DNA of 64,000 bases, from the NCBI GenBank assembly GCA_947457395.1, contig CANGVA010000003.1:78825-142824 (forward strand). Direction: 5' to 3'. This document shows positions 3,480 to 47,633 of this stretch, piece by piece. A program made the position numbers and the translations under genes. Every line of letters begins with the position of its first letter. The stretch's first letter is position 1. Below the pieces are notes generated by a model. It was not told the DNA's origin, searched no databases, and saw only the letters and a list, made by a program, of their open reading frames with translations. The stretch is from Bacteroidota bacterium (lineage in GTDB: Bacteria > Bacteroidota > Bacteroidia > UKL13-3).

Positions 3480-3490
3480 AAAATGAACCT

Positions 3491-8791: not shown

Positions 8792-8839
8792 CCGGAGCCA
8801 AGATATTAATTGAAATCAAATTTGGATACATTTGTAAAC

Positions 8840-9055
8840 ATGGAAAAAATCAAATACTTCTTCGAAAAGCATGCTTTTGGTGTATGCACCTATATCGGGG
8901 ATAAGTTTGGCATTTCTGTTTCCCGTATCAGGCTTTATTTTATATATACATCTTTCATAACCATGGGTTCGCCTATCATATTTTATCTTGTTGCTGCTTT
9001 CTGGATTAATCTAAGAAAGTATATCAGAAGTAATAAAACAATCTGGGATTTATAA
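8840..9055 (+). CDS. PspC-domain membrane protein (phage-shock protein C family)
   Basis: MEKIKYFFEKHAFGVCTYIGDKFGISVSRIRLYFIYTSFITMGSPIIFYLVAAFWIN matches the PspC domain (G.C.G.A..FG.....R..F). The ORF-track start at 8810 is TTG and the first ATG is at 8840. The stop overlaps the HK start (TAATG at 9053-9057). Confidence 0.6.
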   Translation: MEKIKYFFEKHAFGVCTYIGDKFGISVSRIRLYFIYTSFITMGSPIIFYLVAAFWINLRKYIRSNKTIWDL

Positions 9056-26508: not shown

Positions 26509-27450
26509 TTATGATGTTTGACCACCTAAATGATGCAGCATATCTTTGGTCATATTATCTAAATCAAATTCAGGTTTCCAACCCCAGTGATTGCGTGCCT
26601 CGGTATCGTCAATACTGGCAGGCCAGCTATCTGCAATGGCTTGTCTGAAATCCGGCTTATAGCTGATGGTAAACTCAGGAATGTGCTTGCGAATAGACGC
26701 TGCAATCTCTTCCGGATCAAAACTCACGCCTGCTATATTATAGCTGCTGCGTATTTTTACTTTTTCTGCAGGTGCTTCCATGAGTTCAATCGTGGCGCGC
26801 AAAGCGTCCGGCATATACATCATAGGCAAAACAGTTCCTGCTTTCAAAAAGCATTCATAGGTTTTGCTTTTTAAAGCTTCATGATAAATATGCACGGCAT
26901 AATCCGTGGTGCCTCCGCCCGGAGCAGATTTGTATCCAATTAATCCGGGATAGCGCAAACTCCTCACATCTACACCATATTTCTGATGATAATACTCGCA
27001 AAAACGCTCGCCTGCTTGTTTGCTTATGCCGTAAATGGTATTAGGCTCCATTACGGTGTATTGAGGCGTACTAACCCTTGGTGTAGTGGGGCCAAATACA
27101 GCAATGGAACTTGGCCAGTATAATTTCTTTATCAGTCCTTCCTTGGCAGCATCCAAACCGTTAAACAATCCCTGCATGTTCAGGTCCCAGCCCAGCTTTG
27201 GATTTTTTTCAGCTGTGGCCGAAAGCAGTGCGGCCAGCAGGTAAACCTGTGTAATGCCATGCTTTTTTATAATGGCATACATGTTTTCTTTGTCCATTAC
27301 ATCCAGCAATTCATAAGGACCTTCAGCTTGTGCAGGTGCTTTTATATCAGAAGTAACAACATTGTTGGTACCAAAAATTTTTCTGAGTTCTGTACTCAAT
27401 TCGGTACCAATTTGTCCGTTGGCACCAATAATTAAAATCTTTTCAGCCAT
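26509..27450 (-). CDS. tdh: L-threonine 3-dehydrogenase, SDR/UDP-glucose-4-epimerase-like type (NAD-dependent epimerase/dehydratase family)
   Basis: ILIIGANGQIGTEL; SSIAVFGP; YGISK (YxxxK); YPGLIGYKS.PGGGTTDYAV; KYECF. Collinear with the archaeal/bacterial short-chain TDHs as I recall them. Confidence 0.75.
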   Translation of the reverse strand: MAEKILIIGANGQIGTELSTELRKIFGTNNVVTSDIKAPAQAEGPYELLDVMDKENMYAIIKKHGITQVYLLAALLSATAEKNPKLGWDLNMQGLFNGLDAAKEGLIKKLYWPSSIAVFGPTTPRVSTPQYTVMEPNTIYGISKQAGERFCEYYHQKYGVDVRSLRYPGLIGYKSAPGGGTTDYAVHIYHEALKSKTYECFLKAGTVLPMMYMPDALRATIELMEAPAEKVKIRSSYNIAGVSFDPEEIAASIRKHIPEFTISYKPDFRQAIADSWPASIDDTEARNHWGWKPEFDLDNMTKDMLHHLGGQTS

Positions 27451-27580: not shown

Positions 27581-28885
27581 ATGCCTTACCTTATTCAAAG
27601 TTTTGATAAAACCACTACAACCATTGGTAGCTTAGTAGAACCTGAGCGCTACCGTGATTTATGGAACCTGCCTTTACATAAGCCAATTATTGCAAGAGGT
27701 GCCGGCCTGTCATATTGCGCTGCTTCTGCAGGCAATCAATGCGTGTCAGTAGATATGCGAAACTTTAACCGCATACTGTCTTTTGATGAAATTAACGGAA
27801 TAATAACCGTAGAGGCGGGTATACCTGCGGGGGAGTTAAATAATTTTCTGATTGGGAAAAACTGGGTTTTGCCAGTGCTTCCCGGTTATCCTGCCATTAC
27901 CATTGGGGGTTGTATTGGGTTTAATGTGCACGGCAAATCACAATACAAAGTTGGTACGTTTATCAATTGGGTAAAATCTATCACCTTATTTCATCCCGAT
28001 ACAGGTTTGCAAACATGCACACCTGATACTGAATTATTTCAATTAACGGTTGGTGGCATGGGCCTTACGGGTATTATTATTTCGGCTACCATTGCATTAA
28101 AAAAAATAGACGGGAACCTCATGTCAATTCAGGCAATGAAGGTGCCGGAGATACAAACCGCTGTGGAGGTAATGGCAACAAAAGCTGAAGAGTATGATTA
28201 TATTTATGCATGGAATAATTTTAACCTAAGGGGTAAGCATTTTGGAAAGGGCATTGTATACCTTGAAAATCATTTACCTGACAGAAAGGAATTAAACCCT
28301 AAGCCATACATCAATAAACTAAATAGATTTAAAAAAATTCCTGTGTTGTATAATGGCCTTACGGTAAAAACCATGAATCGGGTTTATGAATTGATGGATG
28401 CCTTGCAACCCAGGCAACGCGTAATTGATTTGGTGCAGGCTTCATTCCCAATTTATAACAAGGAATTATACTATTATTTTTTTGGTAAAAAAGGGTTTAG
28501 GGAGTACCAAGTGATATTTGATTTAGATAAATGGCAGGCTGCTGTTGCTGAAATTCAGAAGATCATAGCTCAAATGAATATGCCAATTGCATTAGGATCA
28601 TTAAAAATATTTAAAGGGGAGCCTCACAATATCAGTTTCTCAGGCAGCGGACTCTGTGTTACCATTGATGTGCCTAATAACAAAAAATCGATTTCTTTTT
28701 TTGAGGCATTAGATAAAATTACTTTAAAATATGGAGGCATCATTAACTTAAGTAAAGACAGCAGAGCTGATGCCAATTTGGTTAAACATTGTTTCCCGCA
28801 TTATGAACAGTTTAAGCAGGGAATCCATCGGCATGACCCCAACCAGTATTTTGGAAGTGAAATAAGAACCAGATTAGATTTATAA
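27581..28885 (+). CDS. FAD-dependent oxidase homologous to DprE1 (decaprenylphosphoryl-beta-D-ribose 2'-oxidase; FAD_binding_4)
   Basis: RGAGLSY..., LPVLPGYPAITIGGCIGFNVHGKSQ, LFQLTVGGMGLTGIIISATIALKKI and C-terminal INLSKDSRADANLVKHCFP...F align motif-for-motif with M. tuberculosis DprE1 ([69 protein letters not shown]), recalled from memory. The ORF-track start at 27572 is GTG and the first ATG is at 27581. Confidence 0.8.
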   Translation: MPYLIQSFDKTTTTIGSLVEPERYRDLWNLPLHKPIIARGAGLSYCAASAGNQCVSVDMRNFNRILSFDEINGIITVEAGIPAGELNNFLIGKNWVLPVLPGYPAITIGGCIGFNVHGKSQYKVGTFINWVKSITLFHPDTGLQTCTPDTELFQLTVGGMGLTGIIISATIALKKIDGNLMSIQAMKVPEIQTAVEVMATKAEEYDYIYAWNNFNLRGKHFGKGIVYLENHLPDRKELNPKPYINKLNRFKKIPVLYNGLTVKTMNRVYELMDALQPRQRVIDLVQASFPIYNKELYYYFFGKKGFREYQVIFDLDKWQAAVAEIQKIIAQMNMPIALGSLKIFKGEPHNISFSGSGLCVTIDVPNNKKSISFFEALDKITLKYGGIINLSKDSRADANLVKHCFPHYEQFKQGIHRHDPNQYFGSEIRTRLDL

Positions 28886-29628
28886 TGAAACAGGCAGCAA
28901 TTATCATTGGAGCAAGCTCAGGCTTAGGACGCGCATTGGCAGAAGCAATTGCCCGCACAGGCACGGATGTAATAATGAGTGCCCGCGCAGAACAGGAACT
29001 ACAAATTTTGGCCACCCATTTGCGCATCCGTTACCAAATACAGGCAGAGGTTATTCCGTTAGATCTAGCTACCCTTACTACAGCAACTGCTAAAAACTAT
29101 GTTGATCAATGTTTTGAAAAAATGCCACACTGTTCTCAGGTGTATATTACTGCAGGCATTATAGATGAGCTGGATAAAGGAACCGAGGCTGTTGATTATT
29201 TGCCTAAACTTATGCAGGTAAATTGCATGGGCATAAGCTATGTGATGAATGCGTGTTGCCAATGGTTGCAAAATCGGTCAGCCAATATTACCCTTATCTC
29301 TTCCATAGCGGCCATCAGGCCCCGTGGCTCCAATATTGCCTACAGCGCTTCTAAAATTGCACTGGAGTATATGGCATTGGGTTTGAGGCATCATTTTGCG
29401 CAAAGCCCATTGCGCATTCAGGTATACAGGGCTGGTTATATGGAAACCGCTTTAAGCACAGGTAAGAAATTATTGTTTCCTGTTGCAAAGCCTGAGCGTG
29501 TTGCCCGTGTTTTGATTAAAAACAGACATAAAGATACAGGCTTGATCTATGTGCCGGTATTCTGGCTACCTTTATCGTGGGTGCTGCAATATTTGCCTTG
29601 GTTTATATTTAAAAAACTGAAATTTTAA
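28885..29628 (+). CDS. Short-chain dehydrogenase/reductase homologous to DprE2 (decaprenylphosphoryl-2-keto-ribose reductase)
   Basis: Rossmann IIGASSGLGRALA and YSASKIAL (YxxxK). The C-terminal tail LIYVPVFWLPLSWVLQYLPWFIFKKLKF closely parallels the DprE2 tail ...[28 protein letters not shown]. Start overlaps the upstream stop (TAATG at 28883-28887). Confidence 0.75.
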   Translation: MKQAAIIIGASSGLGRALAEAIARTGTDVIMSARAEQELQILATHLRIRYQIQAEVIPLDLATLTTATAKNYVDQCFEKMPHCSQVYITAGIIDELDKGTEAVDYLPKLMQVNCMGISYVMNACCQWLQNRSANITLISSIAAIRPRGSNIAYSASKIALEYMALGLRHHFAQSPLRIQVYRAGYMETALSTGKKLLFPVAKPERVARVLIKNRHKDTGLIYVPVFWLPLSWVLQYLPWFIFKKLKF

Positions 29629-29644
29629 TTACTTTTCCCCCTTC

Positions 29645-30373
29645 ATGAGCAAGTCCAATATCAGTATATTTTTTCCGGTTTATAATGATGAGCGCACCGT
29701 GCAGGCTGTTACAGAAAAAGCACTGGCTTTTGGTAAAGAGTGTGCCGGTTTGTTTGAAGTCATTATTATAAACGACTGCAGTCCGGATAATTCAGGAAAA
29801 ATTGCAGATACATTAGCCCTCACTTATCCAAATGTGCGCGTCATACATCATCCAAAAAATATGGGCTATGGCGCAGCAGTAAAATCTGGTTTGGGTGCAG
29901 CCCAATATGAATATGTCTGTTTTACCGATGGTGATGATGAGTATGATATGGAAGAATTTAAGAAACTCATCAAGCTGAAAGACTATTACGACCTTATAAT
30001 TACCTTTCGCTACAAAAAGATTTATTCCAATAAAAGGATTTTTATTTCTTATATCTACAATCGTTTGCTGCGATGGATATTCAGAACCAACTTTCGTGAT
30101 ATTAGTACTGGTTTACGCCTGGTGAGGAAAGATATATTAGCTGATATAAACCTGATAACAGATAGTCCGTTTATTGGCGCAGAGCTTACTATTAAAACTA
30201 TGCTAAAGGGCTACAGAGTGGGCGAAGTAGGCATACAAACATTTCCGCGTAAATTTGGTCAGGGCGCATCTACCAGCTTTAAAAATATTATGCGCACCAT
30301 TAAAGATATGCGTAAGGTATATCGCGAAATATTTTCAGACCATTATGATTTGCCTAAGAACAGGCAACGATAA
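29645..30373 (+). CDS. GT2-family polyprenyl-phosphate glycosyltransferase (DPM1/DPG-synthase-like; soluble, no TM anchor)
   Basis: IFFPVYNDE, IIINDCSPDNS, TDGDDEY (DxD), MGYGAAVKSG. No hydrophobic C-terminal segments. Confidence 0.8.
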   Translation: MSKSNISIFFPVYNDERTVQAVTEKALAFGKECAGLFEVIIINDCSPDNSGKIADTLALTYPNVRVIHHPKNMGYGAAVKSGLGAAQYEYVCFTDGDDEYDMEEFKKLIKLKDYYDLIITFRYKKIYSNKRIFISYIYNRLLRWIFRTNFRDISTGLRLVRKDILADINLITDSPFIGAELTIKTMLKGYRVGEVGIQTFPRKFGQGASTSFKNIMRTIKDMRKVYREIFSDHYDLPKNRQR

Positions 30374-30384
30374 ATTAATATATT

Positions 30385-31029
30385 ATGAATTACGACCGTA
30401 TTTACGAATATCGCTTTAAGGATGTTGACCGTGAGAAAAAACTCATGACATGGAAAGAGATTGCTACTTTCATATATAATAAGCTGGATAAACCAAAACG
30501 TATGCTTGATCCTGCTGCAGGGGATTGTGAGTTTATTAATCAGATTGCCTCGGAAGAACGCTGGGCGGTTGATATGAGTGAAATAACACCTAAAATGGCG
30601 CAGCAAGGTATTAAGGTAATCACAGGTAATAATTTAGAAGTAGACTTACCCGAAAATTATTTTGATGGGGTTTTTATCTCCAATTTTTTAGAGCACTTGC
30701 ACAGCCAGGAGCAGGTTGCATTTTTTCTGGAGCGCATGTATAAAGCCATCAAACCCGGAGGGCGTATTGCCATCATGGGACCCAACTTTAAATATACCTA
30801 CAAATATTATTTTGATTTTGCTGATCATACTGTGCTGCTTTCTGAAGGCGGAGTTGCCGAGCATTTGTATGGTGCAGGTTTTAATCCCATTGAAGTGCAC
30901 CCAAAATTTTTGCCATTATCATTTAAAAGCAGGTTACCTGTAAATGCATTTTTGGTGCGTACCTATTTAAATATGCCCATGGTTTGGCCTATTATGGGTA
31001 AGCAATTTTTACTCATTGGTCAGAAGTAA
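30385..31029 (+). CDS. Class I SAM-dependent methyltransferase
   Basis: Motif I region LDPAAGDCEF; post-I/II DGVFISNFLEHL, KPGGRIAIMGP. Confidence 0.7.
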   Translation: MNYDRIYEYRFKDVDREKKLMTWKEIATFIYNKLDKPKRMLDPAAGDCEFINQIASEERWAVDMSEITPKMAQQGIKVITGNNLEVDLPENYFDGVFISNFLEHLHSQEQVAFFLERMYKAIKPGGRIAIMGPNFKYTYKYYFDFADHTVLLSEGGVAEHLYGAGFNPIEVHPKFLPLSFKSRLPVNAFLVRTYLNMPMVWPIMGKQFLLIGQK

Positions 31030-31069
31030 AGTTGCCGTAGTAATGCATTTTTTTTAATACTAACGCAAC

Positions 31070-31681
31070 ATGAATATAGCAATTATCGGAACAGGAAATG
31101 TTGGCGGTGCATTGGCTACTGCCTGGGCAGCCAAAGGTCATCATATTTTTCTCGGTGTGCAGGATCTCAATCAGTTTAAGGGTAGGGATTTGCTCAAGAA
31201 TCAACAAACACAGGCATGCTCCATTGCAGAAGCAGTGGCTAAGGCAGATGTGATATTAATGGCCATACCGCCTCAGGCCATTTTTGGTGTGTTAGAATTA
31301 ATGGGTGATGTAACAGGTAAAACCATAATTGATGCCACCAATGCCGTGAGGCTGGCCCCCGATCCCTATAAAACCGTATATCATTGCCTGGCCGATAAAA
31401 CCAAAGCAGATGTGGTAAAATGTTTTAACAGTACCGGTTTTGAAAACATGCTTAATCCGATTTATAATGGGCAAGGCATTGATATGTTTATGGCAGGCGA
31501 TAGTGATAAGGCTAAAGCTATAGCAAGTATTTTGGCAAGCGATGCAGGTTTTGGATCATGTATGGATTTTGGCAAGGCTGATAAGGTTGAACTCTTGGAA
31601 AAATTTGCCCTATCATGGATAAATCTGGCTATTATGCAGGGCCATGGTCGCAACATGGCGTTTAAAGTGGTGCGCAGGTAA
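31070..31681 (+). CDS. NADP-dependent oxidoreductase, F420-dependent-NADP-reductase (FNO/Npd)-like Rossmann protein
   Basis: MNIAIIGTGNVGGALA dinucleotide-binding start; ~200 aa; resembles the FNO/pyrroline-5-carboxylate-reductase-like NADP_oxidored family. Confidence 0.6.
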   Translation: MNIAIIGTGNVGGALATAWAAKGHHIFLGVQDLNQFKGRDLLKNQQTQACSIAEAVAKADVILMAIPPQAIFGVLELMGDVTGKTIIDATNAVRLAPDPYKTVYHCLADKTKADVVKCFNSTGFENMLNPIYNGQGIDMFMAGDSDKAKAIASILASDAGFGSCMDFGKADKVELLEKFALSWINLAIMQGHGRNMAFKVVRR

Positions 31682-31722
31682 GCAACTGCCATCTTGTTTC
31701 AAGTAGTTTTAAAAGAACAGAA

Positions 31723-33333
31723 TTATTGTGCAACCTTAAATCCATCATTGATATCAGAGGTGCGCAGCATTATTTTATCTGCAATGTAATACGTGCAAGG
31801 AAATTGATCCCAGCACAGGTTGTTTGATTGTACCACAAAAACAGGAAACTGATTGATTTGACTTTGTGTGAGTGTATGCTGAGGATAGCGTAGCGGCTTT
31901 ATAAGAGTAATTTTATCTTGGTTATGCCAAATAAGCCAGCATAGCATCAGCGCCACTACTCCCATATATGCTTTACGTGCCATGTTAAATGCAGGTAATG
32001 TATATTGAGACAAGGCTATGCCCATCATCACCACCATATATCCGTACATAAAACGCATATGTGGTCCGCTGTTAAATAACATGAACCAGCCTGCAAGTGC
32101 TGCCAGTGTTTGTATCGGAAAAGATTTTTGTTTAATGGAGATAATCAGCAGGCTCAGCAAAGATGCAACAAACGCTAAAACCATTCCCTTATTAAACAAG
32201 TCGAGTTGATTAAACCAAACCGGCACCCATTGCTCATATGAGAGCTGTGCTGTTTCATAAATATTGGAATAAGGTATGCGTCCCCATCCTTTTAAAACTA
32301 TTTTATCATATTCAAAGTACGAAGCAGGCACTTTCCAGTCTACCTGAAATAGATCTATCTGATTAAATGGATAAAGGAGGAAACCGCCACGTACCACATT
32401 ACCTGCAAGCCATGGCAGCAGCCAGATGCAGCCAAAAACAGCAATTATGGAAACATACAACCAAACCTGTTTGCTGCTGCGCAAGTACCAGAGTAATATT
32501 ATAATTAGAAACACCAGCAGCAAGGCCGTTGCCTTGATTGTGATGCCCCAAAATATCAGCAATGAAATAATGAGGCTGTAAAAGCCTTTTGATGCGTTGC
32601 TTTGTCTGCTCTCCAGGAATAAGTCAAAGCAAAGAAAAATAATACCGGTGATAACAATATCAGGTGTAACGCTGCCAATAAAAGCAGTTTTTACAGTAAG
32701 CAGCAGGAATAAAATAACAGGCACCCTGAACAAACGTTGTTTGGTTTCAAACACATTACGACTAAAATAAATCATGAGCAACACGTACCAAACACCGTTA
32801 AGTACATACACAGATTGCACGTCCATGTTGCGTAAACCGAAAAATGCCTGTAGATGAAACCACCAGTTATTATTTACAAGTGGACGGTTAAAATTACCAA
32901 TGCCAGGTAGCAGTTTGTAATACTCAGACCATTTAATGGCCTGCAGGTGGTAGTCCGCAATATCGCCCGACCCCGGCTTTATGGCTACGCTGATAATTGC
33001 TGTAAGCAGCAGCAGCAAATTAAACCATATGCTTTTGCGAATGCGATACATCAAATCGGGCAACACACTTATCATTTGCTTTTGGCAGGCTGTAAGTGAC
33101 GCGGTGATAAAAATCCAGACTACAACATGACAGCGCCAGTCAATTGGAATGATAAAATGAAGCAGTGAAACGATGCATGAAATAACAGCAAATCCAATAA
33201 TAACCACCAGTGGTGAGCGCAAGTGCCAGGGCTCGTGCTCCCCTGTAAGTTTCATGATAAACAGAATGGTTGTTACTCCTGCAGCATAGCCAATTATAGA
33301 GGCATAGAGCATGAGTAGCAAAACTTCCAGCAT
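31723..33333 (-). CDS. Polytopic integral membrane protein (>=12 predicted TM helices), possible GT-C-type glycosyltransferase or polymerase-like protein
   Basis: 536 aa, almost entirely hydrophobic helices with one sizeable loop; no family motif recognised. Immediately downstream (4 nt) of the YfhO gene. Confidence 0.5.
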   Translation of the reverse strand: MLEVLLLMLYASIIGYAAGVTTILFIMKLTGEHEPWHLRSPLVVIIGFAVISCIVSLLHFIIPIDWRCHVVVWIFITASLTACQKQMISVLPDLMYRIRKSIWFNLLLLLTAIISVAIKPGSGDIADYHLQAIKWSEYYKLLPGIGNFNRPLVNNNWWFHLQAFFGLRNMDVQSVYVLNGVWYVLLMIYFSRNVFETKQRLFRVPVILFLLLTVKTAFIGSVTPDIVITGIIFLCFDLFLESRQSNASKGFYSLIISLLIFWGITIKATALLLVFLIIILLWYLRSSKQVWLYVSIIAVFGCIWLLPWLAGNVVRGGFLLYPFNQIDLFQVDWKVPASYFEYDKIVLKGWGRIPYSNIYETAQLSYEQWVPVWFNQLDLFNKGMVLAFVASLLSLLIISIKQKSFPIQTLAALAGWFMLFNSGPHMRFMYGYMVVMMGIALSQYTLPAFNMARKAYMGVVALMLCWLIWHNQDKITLIKPLRYPQHTLTQSQINQFPVFVVQSNNLCWDQFPCTYYIADKIMLRTSDINDGFKVAQ

Positions 33334-33338
33334 GGTTA

Positions 33339-35783
33339 TTAGCTCTTTTGTTCGGTTTTTCTTCTCCTGAAAAAGGTAAATCCACCCGCAACTACAATCC
33401 CACCATATAAAATAATGGAAGCAAACATTGAAACACGTTCACCCGTTTCTACAACCTCAGGCTCAAACACAAATTCAATGCGATGTTTACCTGCAGGCAC
33501 TTTCATGCCGCGTAATACATAGTTACAGCGAAGATGTTCTGCTGCATTGCCATCAATTGAGGCCTTCCATCCTTTATCGTAGTAGATTTCAGAAAATACT
33601 GCCAGGTTATCCGAACTGCTGTTCGATTCATAAACCAGTTTGTTGGGCGCATAACTTAGCAGTTTAATAGATGATGTAGAATCTGCCGTTGGATTGAATC
33701 CTTTAAGCATTTCAGCAAAACGTTTATCAACCAATGCAGTAGTTTTTGTATTGATTGTTTTAAGTGAGTCTATTTCTGCATCCGCATTATCAACCATCAT
33801 CAGGTTGCTAATAAACCACGCGTTGCCATTTGCTTCCGGATTGGCTTGAGCAAACAAATTATTGGCACTATCACCTACTATAAAGTATTTAACATTGAGC
33901 ATATTAAAAGCCTGCATATTCCCGCGTGATAAGTGAAACTCTATTAATTCCTGATATCTCCGCATTTTAGCGCCATGATATCCGCCAATGGATTTATGCC
34001 AATAGGAGGTGAGGGCATCCTGATCCAGGCGTTGCGTAGTATTGTATACACGGTAATGAATATCTTTATCCTGCAAAATCATTTCATCGGCTTGTGATTT
34101 TGGAAAGGAAGCTTCCAGATTTTTCTTCTTGGTTTCAAAATCTGAATCGTTTAGGTAACGTTTGTCAACGCCCCACAAGTCAATAACAATAAGACCTAAC
34201 AAAACACCCACAAATAATTGCTGCTTCACTTTTCCGTTCAGATAAAACCATATAAGGGTGAATGCAGCACCTATAAACAGTAATGACCTAAGTGCATCCG
34301 CTTTTAGTAAGGCTTCACGGTCCTTAACGATCGATTCTCTAAGCCATTCAGGCAGGCGGTCGTCAACCGGTGAAATGAAGTTAAGAAAAAGATCAGGCAT
34401 AAATGAAAAAACTGCGCATAGCCCCCCAACAATATAAAAGCTGTACAGTAAGGGTTTTTTCAAATCGGCCGGCTTTATTTTTCCTGAAAGCAAATCGCGC
34501 AAGGCAAGCAGGGCAAGCAGCGGAAATGTTGTTTGGGTAATGCACAGAATAAAAGTTACCGAGCGGAATTTGTTATACAAAGGAAAGTTATAGAAGAACA
34601 AATCCGTTAGTGTCATAAAATTTTTGCCCATGGAAAGCATGATGGCCAATACAGAAATGGCCAGTATCCACCATTTTTCAGGCCCTTTGATAACAAATAA
34701 GCCTAGCACAAACAGAAAACAAATGATGGCGCCATAGTATATGGGGCCGGCTGTAAATGGCTGGTCACCCCAGTAAACAGGCATACCCTGAATGATTTGC
34801 TTTGCATTAGGAACCCCGTTTTGCTTTAAGATTTTATAGGTTTCGGATGAGGTGCTGAGTTCTGCCGAACTGGAGCCGCCATAAAAATTAGGGATGAGCA
34901 GGGTAAATGGTTCTGCAACACCATTGCTCCATTGCAGGGCATAATCTTTATCCAATCCGGAGGAGGCAATAGCGGCATTACCTTCGCCTGTAGCCGTTTT
35001 GGTAAGTTCTGATTTGCCACGTATACTATACTTGCCATATTCTTCTGTTGGTAGCAGATTGTTGGCGCCTGTTGCCACACCAACGGCTGCGGCAACAGCC
35101 AGAAATACACCGCAAATAAGTAAGTGTGCGATCTTTTTGTCTTTGGCTGCAATCACAATCTCGGCTATCATCCACACGCCAATCAGAATCATTAGGTAAT
35201 AGGTTATTTGCAAGTGGCCTGCAGCCAGCTGTAGCGATAAAGCAATACCTGTGAGCAAGGCCCCGATAAGCCTGTTTTTGCGTAAAGTATAGTTGATACC
35301 TGCAAGCACCAGAGGCATAAAGGCAATGGCATTGCCTTTGCCTACGTGCCCTGCATCTATATTGATGAGGTTAAAAGAGGAAAACATAAATGCCAGACTT
35401 CCTGCAATGGCCAGCCAGGGCGAGACCTCGAAGGTTAGCAATAAGATATAAAAGCAAATAAACAACAGAAACATCGTGTCTACCGGGTTAGGTAAAACCC
35501 GGCTAATAAAATCACTTACCGTTGATGTGAAGTTGTTTTTATAAGATGGCCCGATGAGATAGGTGGGCATGCCGCTAAACACAGAATTGGTCCAAAAAGT
35601 GCGCTCTCCGCTTGCCTTTTGATATTGTGCAATTTCATTGTAGGTAGCTTGCCATTGCTGCACGTCATGTTGTTTTAGTGCTTTCCCTGAAAGTAACGGA
35701 TTAAAATAAATGATAATGGCAGTAAGGGCAATGATAATGGCAGCCAGATGAGGAAACCATTTTTTCTGCAAAAGTGAATTCAT
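33339..35783 (-). CDS. YfhO-family membrane protein (GT-C fold; polyprenyl-phosphate-sugar-dependent periplasmic glycosyltransferase family)
   Basis: N-terminus MNSLLQKKWFPHLAAIIIALTAIIIYFNPLLSGKALKQHDVQQWQATYNEIAQYQKASGERTFWTNSVFSGMPTYLIG matches the conserved start of Bacteroidota YfhO-family proteins (...QHDI.Q..G...EI..YR..TGEE.LW.NSMFGGMP.YL) as I recall them. ~800 aa, multi-TM N-terminal half with a large C-terminal soluble domain. Confidence 0.7.
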   Translation of the reverse strand: MNSLLQKKWFPHLAAIIIALTAIIIYFNPLLSGKALKQHDVQQWQATYNEIAQYQKASGERTFWTNSVFSGMPTYLIGPSYKNNFTSTVSDFISRVLPNPVDTMFLLFICFYILLLTFEVSPWLAIAGSLAFMFSSFNLINIDAGHVGKGNAIAFMPLVLAGINYTLRKNRLIGALLTGIALSLQLAAGHLQITYYLMILIGVWMIAEIVIAAKDKKIAHLLICGVFLAVAAAVGVATGANNLLPTEEYGKYSIRGKSELTKTATGEGNAAIASSGLDKDYALQWSNGVAEPFTLLIPNFYGGSSSAELSTSSETYKILKQNGVPNAKQIIQGMPVYWGDQPFTAGPIYYGAIICFLFVLGLFVIKGPEKWWILAISVLAIMLSMGKNFMTLTDLFFYNFPLYNKFRSVTFILCITQTTFPLLALLALRDLLSGKIKPADLKKPLLYSFYIVGGLCAVFSFMPDLFLNFISPVDDRLPEWLRESIVKDREALLKADALRSLLFIGAAFTLIWFYLNGKVKQQLFVGVLLGLIVIDLWGVDKRYLNDSDFETKKKNLEASFPKSQADEMILQDKDIHYRVYNTTQRLDQDALTSYWHKSIGGYHGAKMRRYQELIEFHLSRGNMQAFNMLNVKYFIVGDSANNLFAQANPEANGNAWFISNLMMVDNADAEIDSLKTINTKTTALVDKRFAEMLKGFNPTADSTSSIKLLSYAPNKLVYESNSSSDNLAVFSEIYYDKGWKASIDGNAAEHLRCNYVLRGMKVPAGKHRIEFVFEPEVVETGERVSMFASIILYGGIVVAGGFTFFRRRKTEQKS

Positions 35784-36023
35784 GTGTTTTTGTTTAAATT
35801 GGGTTAAACACCCCTATTTAGCTGAAATAGCGGGTTTTCTGTTGCCGAATATATGTTTTGTCTGTTAACCCGCAAAATATGATAAAAATCAATCATAAAA
35901 TTAATGTTTGTATGAATGTCAAAATAGGGTAAAATGGATGTAAACAAAACATACGGGCCCATGGAATTAACTTTATTTGCACCCACTAAAATTAACCCGA
36001 TTCATTATATCCAATCTAAGTCA

Positions 36024-37316
36024 ATGAAAAAACTATTACTTCTTTTAACAGCCGTCTTGTTCATCAGCCAATTACATGCCCAAAATGTCGATTCAGTTTC
36101 GATGGGAGGCGGAACAACTGCTTATCCTTTGGATGTGTATTATAATATTACCACCGGATCCAAGGATACAGCAAGAAATAACAACTGGCATATTGCGTTC
36201 TCCGTGCGTAATGCACAGCCACCAATGAATGTATTACTTGCTGCTACCGTGCGCATCAATATGGCTCGTGGGGTTACGGTATACAAATCAAACCAAGGTC
36301 CTGATTCCTGGTCCAGTTTTGATACGACTAACTGGAGAAACTGGAATGTGGTTAGAGATAGCGACACATCATGGGATGTTGGAGCCTTAAATCAGGGAAG
36401 AACCAATGGGTTTGATTTCGGCTGGGGAGACTACAATATGAATACGCACCATATTGATGGAAAAGTGATCTACCTTTTCGCAATTAGAAATGGTAGCAAT
36501 ACCGTATTTAAGAAACTCATGATTAACCAGCTTACCCGCGATACGGCTTGGAACTTTACTTTTGCTAATCTAAACAATACAGATAGCAACAATGTGCGTT
36601 TTAACAAGGCTGCTTATACCGGTAAAATGTTTGCGTATTATAATTTATTTACTAAAACTTTATTTGATCGAGAGCCATTAAGAGCCAATTGGGACTTATT
36701 GTTTACCCGCTATCATGCTAGGGTAAATTACCTAGGCTCCGATACTTTTTATAATGTAACAGGTGTACTAATCAATCCTACAAATGTGATGGCTGCCCGT
36801 GTTTCAGGTCTACAGCGTGATAGCGTTAATCGTAGCAAAGTTACAGCATACATTTCTATCATTAATACCATTGGTTGGGATTGGAAAGTTTCTCCTATGG
36901 GTCCGCCAACACCATCATGGCCTATTGTTGATACATTGGTGTTTTTTGTAAAAAAGGGCAATCTTATTTATAAATTGTTATTTGACAGATTTGATGCAAA
37001 TCCTAATATGATTGTTTTCAACAAATCATCTATAGATGTTACTTCGGTAAGTAAGGTAAGCAATCCTGTTGCAAGTGTATTGGCGTATCCCAATCCTGCC
37101 AAGACGGATGTAACCATCAAGGTTATAACAGAGGCCTATAATGCCCGTCTTTCAGTTATTGATATAACCGGGAAAACTGTTTACCAAACATCCATGGAAG
37201 TTGCAGACGATGGTTTTCTCTCACAAGTTAAGACCGATCAAATAAGTAAAGGTATTTACTTTTATCATGTAGAAACCCCGATAGGAATGGTAACCGGCAA
37301 ATTTATTGTGGAGTAA
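36024..37316 (+). CDS. Secreted HmuY-like (putative heme-binding) family protein with T9SS C-terminal sorting domain
   Basis: Signal peptide MKKLLLLLTAVLFISQLHAQ (the upstream ORF-track start lies beyond it). NNNWHIAFS and ANWDLLFTRY motifs parallel the downstream lipoprotein and resemble the HmuY WDIAF-type motif. C-terminus LAYPNPAKTDVTIKV...GIYFYHV...KFIVE. Confidence 0.55.
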   Translation: MKKLLLLLTAVLFISQLHAQNVDSVSMGGGTTAYPLDVYYNITTGSKDTARNNNWHIAFSVRNAQPPMNVLLAATVRINMARGVTVYKSNQGPDSWSSFDTTNWRNWNVVRDSDTSWDVGALNQGRTNGFDFGWGDYNMNTHHIDGKVIYLFAIRNGSNTVFKKLMINQLTRDTAWNFTFANLNNTDSNNVRFNKAAYTGKMFAYYNLFTKTLFDREPLRANWDLLFTRYHARVNYLGSDTFYNVTGVLINPTNVMAARVSGLQRDSVNRSKVTAYISIINTIGWDWKVSPMGPPTPSWPIVDTLVFFVKKGNLIYKLLFDRFDANPNMIVFNKSSIDVTSVSKVSNPVASVLAYPNPAKTDVTIKVITEAYNARLSVIDITGKTVYQTSMEVADDGFLSQVKTDQISKGIYFYHVETPIGMVTGKFIVE

Positions 37317-37364
37317 TCCTACTTGGAAAATATTTTTTCATATGGTTTAAAAACAACACTCACC

Positions 37365-39362
37365 ATGTTTTGCATGGTGTTTGTTGTTTTTGTGCCCTCT
37401 ATGGCACAGCAAGCGGACACCGCAAAAAGTAAGCAATTAGATGATGTGGTGATAACGGGGCAGTATGGCGAAAATTCCCTTTCGCAATCGGTTTACAGGG
37501 TAAAGGTAATTGGGCAAAAAAGAATTGAGCAGCAAGGTGCAGTTAACCTGCGTGATTTGTTAAACAATGAACTGAATATGCGTATAAACAACGACCCCGC
37601 ACTGGGTAGTGGTTTAAGCATTCAGGGCATCAATGGGCAAAACATAAAAATTATGATTGATGGTGTGCCCATTATTGGTCGTGAAGGAAATTTTATCGAT
37701 CTCAATCAGCTTAATCTAAATAATATTGAACGAATAGAAGTAGTTGAAGGGCCCATGAGTGTGAGTTTTGGAACCGATGCACTGGGCGGTGTTATTAATC
37801 TTATTACAAAGAAATCATACAAGCATCAGGATCAACTAGGAGCCAAAATATACTACGAAAATATTGGGCAGTATAACCTGAATTTATTTACAAGTATCTA
37901 TTTGAACAGAGAATGGCGTTTGGAGGTAAACGGATCAAGAAACTTTTTTGAAGGCTTTGCTCAAAATGAGGATTCACGCGTAAAACTATGGAAGCCACGC
38001 ACACAATATTTTGGAGATTTAAGTATATCTAAAAAATATTCTAACTCATCGCTCCGTTTAACCGCTAGTATTTTGGATGAGAAGGTTACCAACAGAGATT
38101 CCGGAACCATTACACCTTATAGCGCATACGGAATAGATCAGTATTATTACACCAGAAGGGCATCAACTGCGGTATTTTATGAGCGAAAACTTTTTAGCAA
38201 CCATTCACTACATGTAGTGGCCGCCTACAACCATTACAGGCGCATTGTAAATACTATTAGAAAAGATCTTGTTACACTGGAGGAATCGCTGATACCTGAA
38301 GCTCACTTGCAGGATACAGGTTACTTTAGTAATATAATGAGTAGAGGAACATTCTCCAGAAATAAGGATAAGGCTAAATATAATTATCAGTTTGGTTATG
38401 AAGCAACGCATGATCAGTTTAACGGTAGCCGCATTGCTAATGGTAGTCAATCTATTACAGATATCAGTGGTTTTGCCAGTATGGAACTTAAGTTCTTTCA
38501 GCGGCTGCTGGTTAGGCCCGGAATACGTCTAACCTATAACAGTAAGTATCAGGCCCCGCTTATACCTTCGATAAATATTAAATGGGATATTCGCTCGGAC
38601 CTAAGCCTTCGTGCTTCCTTCGGAAGAGGATTCAGATCACCTACGTTAAAGGAATTGTATTTAAGCTTTACAGATCCTGCACACAATATTAAGGGTAACC
38701 CAGATTTAAAAGCTGAAACGCAAAATAATTATCAGGTAAGTCTAACACACCAGCATAGAATGCAGGACCAAATGCTTAAAATGGATGTCGCATTTTTTTA
38801 CAATGAAATCTTTAACAAAATAGATTTAGTTTTATTAAACAGCACCAATGTGGAGGCACGTTATTCATCCATCAGTGATTTTAGAAATGTCGGTACTAAT
38901 GTTACAGCTGAATATGTGGCACCAGATTATGCAGTGAGTTTGGGCTATGCACTCATAGGTATCAATAATACTTTTACCAATCTATTGGAGTCTGACAAGT
39001 ATTTTACAACCCAGGAGTATCGTTGTAATGCGCGTTATCTGATTCGAAAAATCAAAACGCAGATTTCATTGTTTTATAAGTATAATTCCCGCATGCAGCT
39101 ATTTCAATATAATATTAACGAAGGGCAGGTTAGAACCGGTTTTATTCAAGGATTTGCTTTGTTTGATTTAACAGCAGGCAGAAGTTTTTTTAAACAAAAA
39201 CTGGCTATTCAAACTGGCATAAAAAATATATTGGATGTGCTCAATGTTCAGGCCAGTTTAGTTACTGGTCCGCATGCACCGGCTGGAAACAACGCTGCAG
39301 TAGCAATGGGTAGAACTTACTTTTGTGCAGTTCAATATCAATTAAGTATAGATAAGCGATGA
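37365..39362 (+). CDS. TonB-dependent outer-membrane receptor (HmuR-like)
   Basis: Signal peptide, plug-domain motif IEVVEGPMSVSFGTDALGGVINLITK, and a C-terminal beta-barrel. The ORF-track start at 37323 is TTG and an in-frame ATG is at 37365. Confidence 0.85.
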   Translation: MFCMVFVVFVPSMAQQADTAKSKQLDDVVITGQYGENSLSQSVYRVKVIGQKRIEQQGAVNLRDLLNNELNMRINNDPALGSGLSIQGINGQNIKIMIDGVPIIGREGNFIDLNQLNLNNIERIEVVEGPMSVSFGTDALGGVINLITKKSYKHQDQLGAKIYYENIGQYNLNLFTSIYLNREWRLEVNGSRNFFEGFAQNEDSRVKLWKPRTQYFGDLSISKKYSNSSLRLTASILDEKVTNRDSGTITPYSAYGIDQYYYTRRASTAVFYERKLFSNHSLHVVAAYNHYRRIVNTIRKDLVTLEESLIPEAHLQDTGYFSNIMSRGTFSRNKDKAKYNYQFGYEATHDQFNGSRIANGSQSITDISGFASMELKFFQRLLVRPGIRLTYNSKYQAPLIPSINIKWDIRSDLSLRASFGRGFRSPTLKELYLSFTDPAHNIKGNPDLKAETQNNYQVSLTHQHRMQDQMLKMDVAFFYNEIFNKIDLVLLNSTNVEARYSSISDFRNVGTNVTAEYVAPDYAVSLGYALIGINNTFTNLLESDKYFTTQEYRCNARYLIRKIKTQISLFYKYNSRMQLFQYNINEGQVRTGFIQGFALFDLTAGRSFFKQKLAIQTGIKNILDVLNVQASLVTGPHAPAGNNAAVAMGRTYFCAVQYQLSIDKR

Positions 39363-40375
39363 TTAAAGTTAGATATACCGCATATATGTTGACAATGGCT
39401 ATTTTCTTTTCATCATGTGAGAAGGAGGAAGTGCCCATTAAATTACCACCTAAAGATCATAATGTTGGTATGATGAGCGTTGATTTAGGCACAGAATACG
39501 ATAAGCAGGTTTATATTAATCTTGACTCAGGAATAGTTCAATCAGTAGATAATAATTTATGGGATCTAAGTTTTGATGCAGCACCGGAAGGTTTTGCTAT
39601 TTATATAAATGGAGGCAAGAATGTGTTGGTAGCAAATACCGGTAGCACAGATTTTTCTGATATCAGAATCACTTCTGAGTTAAATTGGCGCTGGGATGAG
39701 TCTTCAGGCAATCCGGATTCACTTGCGTTGAGCAATTGGTGTAATCTGCATAATCGCAGATCATATGACAGTGTTTATGTTATCGATAGGGGAATGGGAT
39801 CAAGCAATGCCAATAATTATTTTAAGTTTAAGATAATTGCTGTGACACCGCAGAAGTATGTTATTTCAGTTGCAGATATGAAGGGCAGATTTATTAAAGA
39901 AACAAATGTTTATAAGTCTCCTGATAAGATGCTGGTATATTTTTCATTCGATAACGGGGGTACATATCATAATTTTGAGCCCTCTATTCACCAATGGCAT
40001 TTTAAGTTTTTACGTTACCGGTGGGTTTATTATGAATTTACCCCACCGCTGCTGTATCAGGTTACAGGTGTTCATTTAAACAAACGAATGTTTGATGTAG
40101 CGGTAGATAGTACACTCCAGTTCTACGATATTAAGTTCGACCACTCCTTGAGTCCTACACTTTGTTATTCAAATGACAGGGATCAAATCGGGTTTGAATG
40201 GAAGTATCCTGATTTTACACCAAATGGTGTGCGCTATCGAACCAGAAGTTATATTAATTACTTTTTAAGACACCAGCACATGCATGCAACCGTTTATAAA
40301 CTTCGTTTTCTCGATTTTTATGACGATAAAGGAAATAAGGGCTCGCCACGGTTTGAATTCCAGCTACTGCATTAA
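39359..40375 (+). CDS. HmuY-like family lipoprotein (paralog of 36024..37316)
   Basis: Lipobox MAIFFSSCEKEE. NNLWDLSFDA and HQWHFKFLRY parallel the NNNWHIAFS and ANWDLLFTRY motifs of the upstream T9SS protein. Start overlaps the receptor stop (ATGA at 39359-39362). Confidence 0.5.
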   Translation: MIKVRYTAYMLTMAIFFSSCEKEEVPIKLPPKDHNVGMMSVDLGTEYDKQVYINLDSGIVQSVDNNLWDLSFDAAPEGFAIYINGGKNVLVANTGSTDFSDIRITSELNWRWDESSGNPDSLALSNWCNLHNRRSYDSVYVIDRGMGSSNANNYFKFKIIAVTPQKYVISVADMKGRFIKETNVYKSPDKMLVYFSFDNGGTYHNFEPSIHQWHFKFLRYRWVYYEFTPPLLYQVTGVHLNKRMFDVAVDSTLQFYDIKFDHSLSPTLCYSNDRDQIGFEWKYPDFTPNGVRYRTRSYINYFLRHQHMHATVYKLRFLDFYDDKGNKGSPRFEFQLLH

Positions 40376-41702: not shown

Positions 41703-41882
41703 CTATGGCTTTCCATCACCTTTTTTCCTGCGATAATAAAATATTACTCCAAACAGGATGGCCATGATAAAATATAAATAGCCCTTATCTTTCATTACAT
41801 GTTCAAAAATGCTAATATAAATACCAACCAGAAATGATGATATTGCCAGCACCAGCCAATTATAGAAAATGATGCGTTTCAT
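41703..41882 (-). CDS. Unannotated small membrane protein ORF (59 aa, two predicted TM helices), not in the ORF track because it is under 60 aa
   Basis: MKRIIFYNWLVLAISSFLVGIYISIFEHVMKDKGYLYFIMAILFGVIFYYRRKKGDGKP. Its ATG overlaps the TGA of the upstream lipoprotein gene (ATGA at 41879-41882). Confidence 0.3.
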   Translation of the reverse strand: MKRIIFYNWLVLAISSFLVGIYISIFEHVMKDKGYLYFIMAILFGVIFYYRRKKGDGKP

Positions 41883-42421
41883 GGTTTCTTTAAGTTGATG
41901 GTTCCCCTGATTTTGAAAATCTTGTATTCTGTAAACTCAGTATTGGACTCAAGTCCATCGCCTAGTATAATCTGATCGGGAGTGGTAATGCGAATAAATT
42001 TATCGGTATAAATCTTTTGTGTGGTTTCATCCCAGGTAAGTAATTCTGTTCTCAGCGTATCGCCTTTATTATTAACCAAGATTACATCATCCCGCGCCAC
42101 CATCTTACGCTCTCGATCGAGGCGGATGGCATATTTGGATTTAAGATAACTTTCAACTTTTTTATTTTTATTTAAGAAGTAGGCAGTCATACCTTGCTTC
42201 ATAACGGTTTCATTTCTCTCTTCATTGGCATAACGCTCCATCATGGGTGCAAAAATTTTGGCCTTAACATAACCGGAGTCGGTATAATTAATAACCATAT
42301 TTTTACCTGTTTCCAGCGGCATGTTTCTGCGATCTGTCATCACCTTCACTTTATCCGCATCATTAACACCACAGGCAGCCGTTAAAAAAAAACCAATTAC
42401 AATTAGTAGCGATTTAGTCAT
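41879..42421 (-). CDS. Hypothetical lipoprotein (possibly LptC/OstA-like fold)
   Basis: Lipobox IGFFLTAACGV. The ORF-track start at 42463 lies upstream of the likely ATG at 42421. ~180 aa with a beta-rich, LptC-like composition; the family assignment is weak. Confidence 0.45.
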   Translation of the reverse strand: MTKSLLIVIGFFLTAACGVNDADKVKVMTDRRNMPLETGKNMVINYTDSGYVKAKIFAPMMERYANEERNETVMKQGMTAYFLNKNKKVESYLKSKYAIRLDRERKMVARDDVILVNNKGDTLRTELLTWDETTQKIYTDKFIRITTPDQIILGDGLESNTEFTEYKIFKIRGTINLKKP

Positions 42422-43682
42422 ACTTATAGCGGGTAAACCACTTGTCGCTAACTGAAACACCAAGTGTAAATCTGAAATATTCTTCTTGAATTAACCCAAC
42501 TTTAGTGGTGCCGCGCATGAGGTATTCAAAACCAATGTTTAGTTTGTTTCTTGATTTACCAAGCGGCAGGCCAAGACCAACAGACAGGCCCAGATTGCCA
42601 ATATTTTCACCGTCAATCTTAAGGCTGCCGTTGTTATATCTGATACCAGCACGGTATTCAACCCTGCTGAAATAATTTTTAAAATCGAGATAATTGGGTA
42701 CCCAAGATCCGCCTGCATTTATGCCAAAAGAATTAAACAATGAATCGCTGGATCCAAAGATTCTGTAATCACTCCATTGGGTATAATTTGCCTCTGCACC
42801 CACAAACCATTTATCTTTTTTATTTAAGCCAATACCCAAAGCGTATGATGCAGGTAAAATAATATTACCTGAAATATTGTTGCGATAATCAATGGTATCA
42901 ACCACTCCAATTAAGCCGCCAATACCCATCGATTTAACAAAAAATTCACGTTGTGCGCTTAGATTACTTTGTTGCATTATGCTTCCGGCAATAATTACAC
43001 GGTAATTGGTGTCTTTTAGGTTATGCTGGTATTGAAAACTATATTGAAACTGAAAATCTCCGGCAATAATGCGGTTCTGATTTTCAATATTGAATCGCTT
43101 AAATTCACTAGGAATAATTAGCGTTTGCGTGTTTTCAAGTGTTCCAAAAATATAGGAAGCCTGTATACCGGCAGAGAACCCCTTGAACAATGAAATTCCT
43201 GTACCTCCGTAAAAACGGGTTAACCCGCCCATACCTTTTTGTTTAATGGTAGCAGTATAATCAGGAAAAATAGCTTTGCTGCTCACGTCATAACCCATAT
43301 TGCTATATGGGTCTAAGCCAAATCCAAATCCCCATTTTAACTTGTATGAAAGAGGAAAGGCAATTCTGAAATAGCTAAATGAATAACTTTCAACTGGTGA
43401 TGAGCTGGTTGCATTGGTTAGTGTTCCGTTGCTATATTCTGCACCAGCCTCAATAACTGTTTGCAGCAAGCTGCCATAGGAGGCAGGATTGGTTGAGTTT
43501 ATTTCAAACGGATTATTTAGCGTAAGGCTTAACTGGCCCATGCCAAATTGTTTAACTGTACCGCCAAAATGCTGTTCCCCGATACCAAAGGCAGAATATG
43601 GCGAACGGGTGAAATTTTGTGCCATCGCTGCAAGTGGTATAGCAATCATACAGAAAACCAGCCTAATGGCATTATTTAACAT
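42414..43682 (-). CDS. Hypothetical outer-membrane beta-barrel protein (porin-like)
   Basis: Signal peptide MLNNAIRLVFCMIAIPLAAMAQ; an SPYSAFGIGE motif; alternating amphipathic strands; C-terminal aromatic residue. Confidence 0.5.
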   Translation of the reverse strand: MLNNAIRLVFCMIAIPLAAMAQNFTRSPYSAFGIGEQHFGGTVKQFGMGQLSLTLNNPFEINSTNPASYGSLLQTVIEAGAEYSNGTLTNATSSSPVESYSFSYFRIAFPLSYKLKWGFGFGLDPYSNMGYDVSSKAIFPDYTATIKQKGMGGLTRFYGGTGISLFKGFSAGIQASYIFGTLENTQTLIIPSEFKRFNIENQNRIIAGDFQFQYSFQYQHNLKDTNYRVIIAGSIMQQSNLSAQREFFVKSMGIGGLIGVVDTIDYRNNISGNIILPASYALGIGLNKKDKWFVGAEANYTQWSDYRIFGSSDSLFNSFGINAGGSWVPNYLDFKNYFSRVEYRAGIRYNNGSLKIDGENIGNLGLSVGLGLPLGKSRNKLNIGFEYLMRGTTKVGLIQEEYFRFTLGVSVSDKWFTRYKYD

Positions 43683-47593: not shown

Positions 47594-47633
47594 AGGTCTT
47601 TTCTTTACAACTTATTATTAAGCAGCAAGTATT

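Follow-up and report, generated by a model that had tools for sequence, protein, structure and literature searches.

How might a Gram-negative bacterium use a DprE1/DprE2-like epimerase pair whose neighbour is a soluble glycosyltransferase of family 2 (GT2)? The question is raised by a locus at 27581-35783 of a 64,000-nucleotide stretch of Bacteroidota DNA (hereafter the window: positions 78,825 to 142,824 of the forward strand of contig CANGVA010000003.1, assembly GCA_947457395.1, lineage UKL13-3). DprE1 is a drug target in tuberculosis. The chemistry of DprE1 and DprE2 is known from mycobacterial arabinan synthesis and from a few pentofuranose systems fed by phosphoribosyl pyrophosphate (PRPP), which has been postulated to be the common entry point (PMC11127046). 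From homology, predicted folds and gene neighbourhoods, we consider it rather probable that the locus would serve extracytoplasmic glycosylation via a lipid carrier, as a variant of three-component periplasmic glycosylation. More tentatively, and at a little under even chances, we suggest that three of its genes, those for the two epimerase components (E1 and E2) and the GT2, represent a widespread and undescribed PRPP-independent route that feeds many unrelated families of C-fold glycosyltransferases (GT-C) in more than ten phyla, including the Candidate Phyla Radiation (CPR). On the same tentative footing, the cassette would have replaced a resident GT2, and the DUF8201 protein encoded beside it would be a new GT-C family.

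The locus

The seven genes are as follows.

27581-28885, forward strand: E1, DprE1-like FAD-dependent oxidase (FAD_binding_4, DprE1 model)
28885-29628, forward strand: E2, short-chain dehydrogenase/reductase (SDR), DprE2-like by position (adh_short)
29645-30373, forward strand: GT2, 242 amino acids, without transmembrane (TM) helices (Glycos_transf_2)
30385-31029, forward strand: class I S-adenosylmethionine-dependent methyltransferase (MT) (Methyltransf_11/12/25)
31070-31681, forward strand: FNO/F420_oxidored-like NADP-binding protein (F420_oxidored, 60 bits)
31723-33333, reverse strand: DUF8201/LIC_10190-family polytopic protein, 536 amino acids (NCBIfam LIC_10190, 204 bits)
33339-35783, reverse strand: YfhO-family protein, 814 amino acids (Pfam YfhO, 57 bits)

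An open reading frame (ORF) check and domain scans bore out the coordinates, strands and family calls of all seven genes as given in the original prediction for this locus. The genes form two convergent units, E1-E2-GT2-MT-FNO-like on the forward strand and YfhO followed by DUF8201 on the reverse strand. Spacing is operon-like, with gaps of 5-41 nt inside the units and between them: YfhO and the DUF8201 gene are 5 nt apart, the convergent units end 41 nt from each other, and the start of E2 overlaps the stop of E1 by 1 nt. The E1 ORF opens at a GTG at 27572; the ATG at 27581 better fits the homologs, which are 434 amino acids long. No N-terminal signal peptide was predicted for E1, E2, GT2 or MT, nor an N-terminal membrane anchor for E1. 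Scans for promoters and terminators, which are ill-suited to Bacteroidota promoters, found sites no more commonly than in shuffled sequence. The host belongs to Sphingobacteriales/Bacteroidia. At the nearest locus from another genome (L001; loci outside the window are cited by such numbers), most of the genes are 90-99% identical to those of the window, and DUF8201 is 79% identical.

Conservation of the E1-E2-GT2 core

A scan seeded with an E1 alignment, taking one genome per species, returned 80 loci, and adjacency was counted in the 71 that had at least 2.5 kb of downstream sequence. The 80 loci span Bacteroidota, Acidobacteriota, Acidimicrobiia, Alpha-, Beta- and Gammaproteobacteria, Bdellovibrionota, Planctomycetota, Nitrospira, Obscuribacterales, Rokubacteria, Binatia and CPR. 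Gene order is nearly invariant among these 71 independent loci: E2 adjoins E1 in 69, and 54 have an adjacent GT2 homolog, which in 46 of them is at least 50% identical to the window GT2. We saw the trio in the same order in Bacteroidota, Acidobacteriota, Acidimicrobiia, Proteobacteria, Bdellovibrionota, Planctomycetota, Melainabacteria and CPR, so that the neighbourhood comparison proposed in the original prediction shows co-conservation, in order, across many phyla. The association exceeds chance, and E1-E2-GT2 is a conserved operon core. Among its carriers is a cultured bacterium, Piscinibacter koreensis ID0723 (L065), which has the full trio.

Another group of loci has, directly before E1-E2, a gene for a longer GT2 that is GtrB-like and anchored by TM helices, and coupling of this E1/E2 clade to GT2s of the polyprenyl-phosphate type is therefore general. 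The association also holds in reverse. Among metagenome contigs recovered with GT2 as the seed, E1 was nearby in about 26 of the 38 loci with enough upstream DNA (hand count). Those GT2 loci that lack E1 were searched for clues to the sugar and this line was abandoned, since they share no consistent nucleotide-sugar pathway (L096 has nonulosonic-acid genes; L164 has an FkbM methyltransferase and a GT9).

The partner transferases of the trio are diverse. A neighbour with at least six TM helices and at least 400 amino acids was present at 49 of 70 loci. When 70 large and 34 smaller membrane ORFs lying within about 10 kb of E1 at the 80 loci were scanned against Pfam and NCBIfam, the annotated neighbours included PMT_2 (11), Agl23-like (6), YfhO (5) and PMT (3) proteins and one AftB-like protein, together with LPG_synthase_TM/TIGR00374 "flippase-like" (4-5), GtrA, MATE and Wzx-like proteins. 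A 467-amino-acid membrane family that follows the trio in other Bacteroidota (L004, L005, L007 and L008) was tried as a relative of DUF8201 or YfhO and rejected, with profile-profile probabilities of 8.6% and 0.4%, respectively.

The predicted epimerase pair

E1 carries a FAD_binding_4 domain (Pfam PF01565, 73 bits) and matches the NCBIfam DprE1 model NF053785 at 231 bits over model positions 37-449 of 449, where the equivalog cutoff is 500; judged by sequence, it is a DprE1 homolog that stands outside the NF053785 equivalog family. Solved DprE1 structures, whose fold it retains, share about 30% identity with it (PDB 4aut, E 4e-35). Across 21 homologs, residues H117-G118-K119 (the active-site His-Gly-Lys) and K392-D393-S394 do not vary, and they align with the matching DprE1 residues of 4aut; the catalytic lysine of the KDSR motif is Lys418 in M. 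tuberculosis DprE1. E2 is a classical SDR (adh_short, 96 bits) and is placed as in dprE1-dprE2, directly downstream of E1. Its top NCBIfam match is the generic SDR PRK07102 (126 bits), and it scores 78 bits against the DprE2 model NF053786 (cutoff 250). We predict that E1 oxidises the 2'-hydroxyl of a polyprenyl-phosphate-linked sugar and that E2 reduces the resulting 2-keto intermediate to the epimer.

The locus has diverged unevenly. Compared with L166, identity is 60% for E1 and 57% for E2, but 85% for GT2, 90% for MT and 82% for YfhO; compared with L001, it is 79% for DUF8201, 90% for E1 and 98-99% for E2, GT2 and MT. Such a pattern suggests that E1/E2 and DUF8201 either evolve faster or are exchanged by recombination.

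GT2 as a predicted polyprenyl-phosphate sugar synthase

The window GT2 (Glycos_transf_2, 99 bits) aligns to ArnC (9hwj, residues 5-218) and to P. furiosus DPMS (5mlz, residues 5-213), and also to AglJ (residues 6-227) and PpgS (residues 8-204), all scores lying under the equivalog cutoffs. The aligned part takes in both the GT-A domain and the juxtamembrane region towards the C terminus. Its DXD-type motif, D95-G96-D97, is invariant. Across phyla GT2 is 54-69% identical, as against 32-53% for E1 and 29-44% for E2, and such strong conservation is expected if neither its donor nor its lipid acceptor varies. GT2 is predicted to be a polyprenyl-phosphate sugar synthase that uses a nucleoside-diphosphate (NDP) sugar.

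It could be argued instead that no lipid-linked sugar is made, with GT2 acting on an undecaprenyl-pyrophosphate-linked glycan or a small molecule while the FAD oxidase and SDR tailor a soluble or nucleotide sugar. All the family scores do lie under curated cutoffs, the top PDB match of GT2, over its N-terminal half only, is an uncharacterised Bacteroides GT2, and some of the GT2-seeded loci fall in ordinary polysaccharide clusters, such as one with NeuB, NeuC and a cytidylyltransferase in L096. However, GT2 resembles the polyprenyl-phosphate transferases ArnC, DPMS, AglJ and PpgS over its full length, and its very high conservation is atypical of GT2s with glycan acceptors. Moreover, the known substrates of the DprE1 family are exclusively polyprenyl-phosphate sugars, and GT-C and flippase-like genes recur as neighbours. 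We consider this explanation very unlikely.

Entry of the sugar into the pathway

The original prediction had the donor built by GT2 rather than by a UbiA-type PRPP transferase, and this can now be supported for the whole clade, in which the trio is co-conserved and UbiA is missing from the neighbourhoods. Not one of the 104 membrane ORFs near the 80 loci matched the UbiA family (PF01040), a search that concerned neighbourhoods only. Within the window, no UbiA-like ORF (about 300 amino acids, 8-9 TM helices) occurs among the ORFs of at least 150 amino acids; the other polytopic proteins encoded there are a sugar transporter of the major facilitator superfamily, an amino-acid transporter, a GtrB-like GT2 and a membrane protein with tetratricopeptide repeats (TPR). 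The lack of UbiA near 80 loci argues that this DprE1/E2 clade is coupled to GT2 and not to the PRPP route.

A classical route would have a UbiA-type enzyme and a phosphatase, encoded elsewhere, make undecaprenyl-phosphate-linked ribofuranose for E1/E2 to convert to the arabinofuranose form, while GT2 made a different donor. PRPP is the starting point of every characterised DprE1/E2 system and of the candidates in Kelly et al. 2024 (PMC11127046), and our search of this genome covered 64 kb. One further observation favours such a route: in L067, from a metagenome-assembled genome of Microthrixaceae, a gene at 7185-9074 on the reverse strand, about 1 kb from the MT-E1 genes, encodes an AftB-like GT-C (257 bits over the N-terminal 360 residues). 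AftB is the terminal beta-(1->2)-arabinofuranosyltransferase, and this neighbour hints, by similarity, at arabinofuranose in that lineage. On the other side, the systems of Kelly et al. encode their PPPRS beside the other components (PMC11127046), whereas here the adjacent gene in 54 of 71 loci is GT2 and UbiA was absent from the membrane ORFs scanned. E1, in addition, scores below half of the DprE1 equivalog cutoff. We therefore regard a PRPP-fed pathway at this locus as improbable. A ribofuranosyl donor made by GT2 would itself require a nucleotide-activated ribofuranose, and we know of no evidence for one.

Candidate transferases and a putative exchangeable donor cassette

The two reverse-strand genes encode the candidate transferases at the locus for the predicted epimerised lipid-linked sugar. 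The 536-amino-acid protein scores 204 bits against LIC_10190 (NF047510, cutoff 100) and has no match in the copy of Pfam that we used; all 66 of its homologs carry PF26626 (DUF8201). The 814-amino-acid protein matches Pfam PF09586 (YfhO) at 57 bits against a cutoff of 28.5, with only residues 704-781 aligned, and all 48 of its homologs match the YfhO model. AlphaFold predictions, made with 47-48 homologs each, gave a predicted local distance difference test (pLDDT) of 91 and a predicted template-modelling score (pTM) of 0.93 for the DUF8201 protein, and 92 and 0.91 for the YfhO-like protein. Both model as GT-C folds.

The YfhO-like model matches STT3B (19.6), AftD (18.1), Pmt4, Pmt2, PglB and AftA. 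Its TM helices extend to about residue 543, beyond which come a beta-rich domain (549-773) and one last helix (776-813). This agrees with the architecture described for B. subtilis YfhO, a lipoteichoic acid GT-C with about 13 TM helices and a large extracytoplasmic domain between the last two (PMC5836110). An invariant Asp40 lies just past the first TM helix. In the DUF8201 protein a long loop that follows helix five holds the conserved acidic residues D124, D127 and E137; in GT-C enzymes a conserved acidic catalytic residue is expected in the first extracytoplasmic loop. The original prediction had named this protein, with 12 TM helices, only as a possible companion of the YfhO-family GT-C in the transfer. 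An accessory role does not fit, given that the protein itself models as a GT-C fold and that three donor cassettes converge on its gene, and we predict from the model that it is a GT-C glycosyltransferase. Our literature search found no function described for DUF8201/LIC_10190.

The three cassettes differ in content. At DUF8201, L081 has a 245-amino-acid GT2 (GT2-A, 25% identical to the window GT2) and an MT, L082 has two NDP-sugar epimerase/dehydratase genes and GT2-A, and the window, L001, L003 and L166 have E1-E2-GT2-MT. L082 and L166 share a common frame of a threonine dehydrogenase, a polytopic protein of about 550 amino acids, a donor operon and DUF8201, so that the interval from the dehydrogenase to DUF8201 behaves as an exchangeable donor cassette. 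YfhO orthologs of 60-70% identity are abundant in Bacteroidota, many of them alone or paired only with DUF8201 and lacking DprE-like genes; L170, for example, has the YfhO-DUF8201 tandem of the window with no donor operon adjoining. The YfhO-DUF8201 pair is thus the resident, conserved feature in this lineage, and E1-E2-GT2(-MT) sits where related genomes have a different GT2.

The GT2-A proteins (L081:11286-12023, L082:10621-11355 and L170:3989-4732) are 75-80% identical to one another and 22-25% identical to the window GT2. They lie beside or near DUF8201 in genomes without E1/E2, and the 64-kb window holds no GT2-A ortholog.

Judged by local synteny, the donor operon is linked more clearly to DUF8201 than to YfhO, and the DUF8201 protein is at least as likely as YfhO to be its partner. 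Independent cases of YfhO-like proteins beside the trio do occur in Acidobacteriota (L049, L052) and Obscuribacterales (L042, L050), and YfhO therefore stays a credible user of the donor.

Proposed pathway

We suggest the following sequence of events. On the inner side of the membrane, the soluble GT2 would load a sugar from an NDP-sugar onto undecaprenyl phosphate. E1 would then oxidise the hydroxyl next to the anomeric carbon, and reduction of the ketone by E2 from the opposite face would yield the 2-epimer, still attached to the lipid. The MT, being cytoplasmic, may methylate the lipid-linked sugar, a step that is weakly inferred. A flippase encoded outside this set of genes would move the donor across the membrane, and the DUF8201 protein, the YfhO-family GT-C or both would pass the sugar to a periplasmic acceptor, for example lipopolysaccharide (LPS), a glycoprotein or a polysaccharide. 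The general logic of charging by GT2, epimerisation by the DprE-like pair and transfer by a GT-C outside the cytoplasm, set out in the original prediction, is supported by homology, folds and neighbourhoods. Of the three components of such a system, a GT2 and a GT-C are present, but the flippase is not encoded in the locus.

Several points weigh against this pathway. The window locus has no gene for a flippase of the GtrA, SMR, MATE, Wzx or TIGR00374-like kind, and between 26.5 and 36 kb there is no small or medium membrane ORF besides the two GT-C candidates. Both E1 (231 against 500 bits) and E2 (78 against 250 bits) fall far under their equivalog cutoffs, and their substrate need not, therefore, resemble decaprenyl-phosphoribose. 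About 10 of the 38 GT2-seeded loci (hand count) have no E1/E2, which implies that the product of GT2 can be used unepimerised and that E1/E2 are a frequent add-on. ORF calling was crude in the high-GC loci, and the enrichment of polytopic neighbours near E1 is modest (0.89 per 10 kb, against 0.58 in the outer flanks). Finally, YfhO orthologs (61-69% identical) stand alone among housekeeping genes in L168 and L169, and DUF8201 stands alone in L084 and L085. Because both genes occur free of the trio, their adjacency to it could reflect insertion beside resident genes rather than a shared function. For the YfhO gene as transferase, as originally predicted, adjacency to the trio thus carries less weight than was supposed.

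The last of these points raises the question of whether the trio makes an epimerised lipid-linked sugar that is used by a GT-C elsewhere, or on the cytoplasmic face, with YfhO and DUF8201 as unrelated residents. In keeping with this, homologs of both often lack an adjacent GT2 as well as E1/E2, and YfhO proteins form a very large family, with 19,791 representatives at E<=1e-3. The genes beyond YfhO, at 35934-40375 on the forward strand, encode a protein with a C-terminal domain of the type IX secretion system (T9SS), a TonB-dependent receptor and a HmuY-like protein. The T9SS protein and the receptor adjoin YfhO likewise in L166 and in L168, so that this synteny is kept in L168, which has no E1/E2. 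Yet three different GT2 cassettes are convergent on DUF8201 in different genomes, and the MT beside DUF8201 in L081, where the GT2 is a different one and E1/E2 are lacking, is 72% identical to the window MT. The independent flanking of the trio by YfhO-like genes in Acidobacteriota and Obscuribacterales also argues for a connection, and no other GT-C candidate lies beside the window trio, the nearest being about 14 kb off. On balance, we think it unlikely that the resident pair has nothing to do with the donor.

In L168, genes with OLD-family nuclease and UvrD-helicase domains occupy the place of DUF8201, possibly as a defence island.

For transfer across the membrane, as required by the pathway that we favour, related loci offer candidates. 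Directly upstream of E1 in three proteobacterial loci is a gene for a TIGR00374/LPG_synthase_TM protein of about 320 amino acids (L035:9016-9969, L037:9010-9969 and L061:9010-9969), and L069 (about 3147-4082) probably has the same upstream TIGR00374-type protein, by cluster membership only. Judged by family, this protein is a candidate flippase for the lipid-linked donor. MATE is also found among the neighbours of related loci. In L167 (5406-9454), a Bacteroidota locus whose E1 is 50% identical, GtrA, a PMT_2 GT-C, a 312-amino-acid GtrB-like GT2 and an amine-oxidase-like flavoprotein lie directly upstream of the trio.

Accessory and neighbouring genes

An MT homolog adjoins the trio in 28 of the 71 loci. 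The FNO-like gene, whose product has weak PDB matches to FNO and STEAP4, is confined to the window and L001. L003 and L166 lack it while retaining all the other genes, and the variable extra of L166 is instead an Acyl_transf_3 gene. The original prediction counted this reductase as part of the system, a role that its lack of conservation with the locus does not sustain. It is accessory at best, and its membership is doubtful.

Upstream of E1, a divergent SDR gene (26509-27450, reverse strand) was considered as a sugar epimerase and rejected once its product proved to be an SDR-type L-threonine 3-dehydrogenase, matching PDB 2yy7 over the full length at 457 bits. The gene travels with the locus in L001-L003, L166 and L082; it is a housekeeping gene that marks the border of the variable donor-cassette region.

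Envelope-biogenesis genes also lie near the locus, namely those for an LptC-related protein (41879-42463, reverse strand) and a BamG-family outer-membrane assembly protein (42414-43733, reverse strand, 354 bits). At 45885-52003 on the forward strand the window holds a second candidate lipid-linked glycosylation set. It opens with a 387-amino-acid GT2 with four C-terminal TM helices (AglJ-like, 125 bits; PpgS, 66 bits), continues with ORFs of 182 and 476 amino acids and ends with a 980-amino-acid protein that combines eight TM helices with TPR repeats at its C terminus and may be a TPR-bearing GT-C.

Comparison with known systems

The mycobacterial decaprenyl-phospho-arabinose pathway comprises the UbiA-type DPPRS Rv3806c, the phosphatase Rv3807c, DprE1/DprE2, Rv3789 and the Emb/Aft GT-Cs. 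Our locus resembles it in the adjacent FAD oxidase/SDR pair, in the predicted 2-epimerisation on the lipid and in transfer by a GT-C outside the cytoplasm. It differs in having a soluble GT2 in the donor-forming place, with neither a UbiA-type enzyme nor a phosphatase present, in drawing its GT-Cs from other families (DUF8201 and YfhO) and in having a Gram-negative host.

The systems described by Kelly et al. (PNAS 2024) combine PPPRS-PRP, a MATE flippase and a GT136 GT-C, with DprE1/E2 homologs for arabinofuranose (Araf) and an SDR for xylofuranose (PMC11127046). As proposed for our locus, a GT-C in the periplasm adds, after polymerisation, a sugar delivered on a lipid, where it may first have been epimerised. 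The epimerase genes are accessory in both, with loci that have them and loci that do not, and the role of E1/E2 as an add-on parallels the distinction between the ribofuranose and Araf systems of those authors (PMC11127046). In contrast to their systems, the sugar here would enter through a GT2, and the locus lacks genes for both a PPPRS and a MATE protein.

A GT2-made undecaprenyl-phosphate sugar and an extracytoplasmic GT-C are also the basis of GtrA/GtrB/Gtr*, CsbB/YfhO-GtcA, GacI/GacL, ArnC/ArnT and PpgS/Rv3779, and the locus GT2 resembles PpgS in its length and in having no TM helices. Unlike the Gtr-type and CsbB/YfhO-GtcA systems, the window locus has no GtrA/GtcA-type flippase. To our knowledge, and in the papers searched, no DprE1/E2-type epimerase works on the lipid-linked intermediate in any of these systems. 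The closest case of on-lipid editing is ArnD, which deformylates Und-P-L-Ara4FN in the Arn pathway.

In mycobacterial methylthioxylose (MTX) capping by the GT2 MtxS and the GT-C MtxT, the polyprenyl-phosphate pentofuranose donor likewise comes from a GT2 (PMC12088412). That system offers a precedent for what we propose here, an unusual sugar being supplied to a GT-C by a GT2 and not by a UbiA enzyme. Angala et al. in 2017 reportedly proposed that MTX is epimerised at the nucleotide-sugar stage and not on the lipid, and that system is said to have no DprE1/E2 homologs.

The locus therefore joins the GT2 entry of Gtr-type systems with the on-lipid epimerase of the mycobacterial and pentofuranose systems. 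A literature search (DprE1/DprE2 with Bacteroidetes, DprE1-like, LIC_10190) found nothing relevant beyond PMC11127046 and a preprint on P. aeruginosa TfpW. It returned no paper on a GT2 combined with DprE1/E2-like enzymes, in agreement with the original prediction, whose author knew of no such system in Bacteroidota.

Implications

If our reading is correct, the trio would provide a route to donors of sugars that have no nucleotide-activated form, and epimerisation on the lipid would be a general way of diversifying the sugar donors of the periplasm. One or more uncharacterised surface sugars would then be expected in Bacteroidota, Acidobacteriota, Nitrospira, Bdellovibrionota and CPR. DUF8201/LIC_10190 gains a testable function, that of a GT-C glycosyltransferase, and the apparently exchangeable donor operon beside it offers a plausible mechanism of surface-glycan variation.

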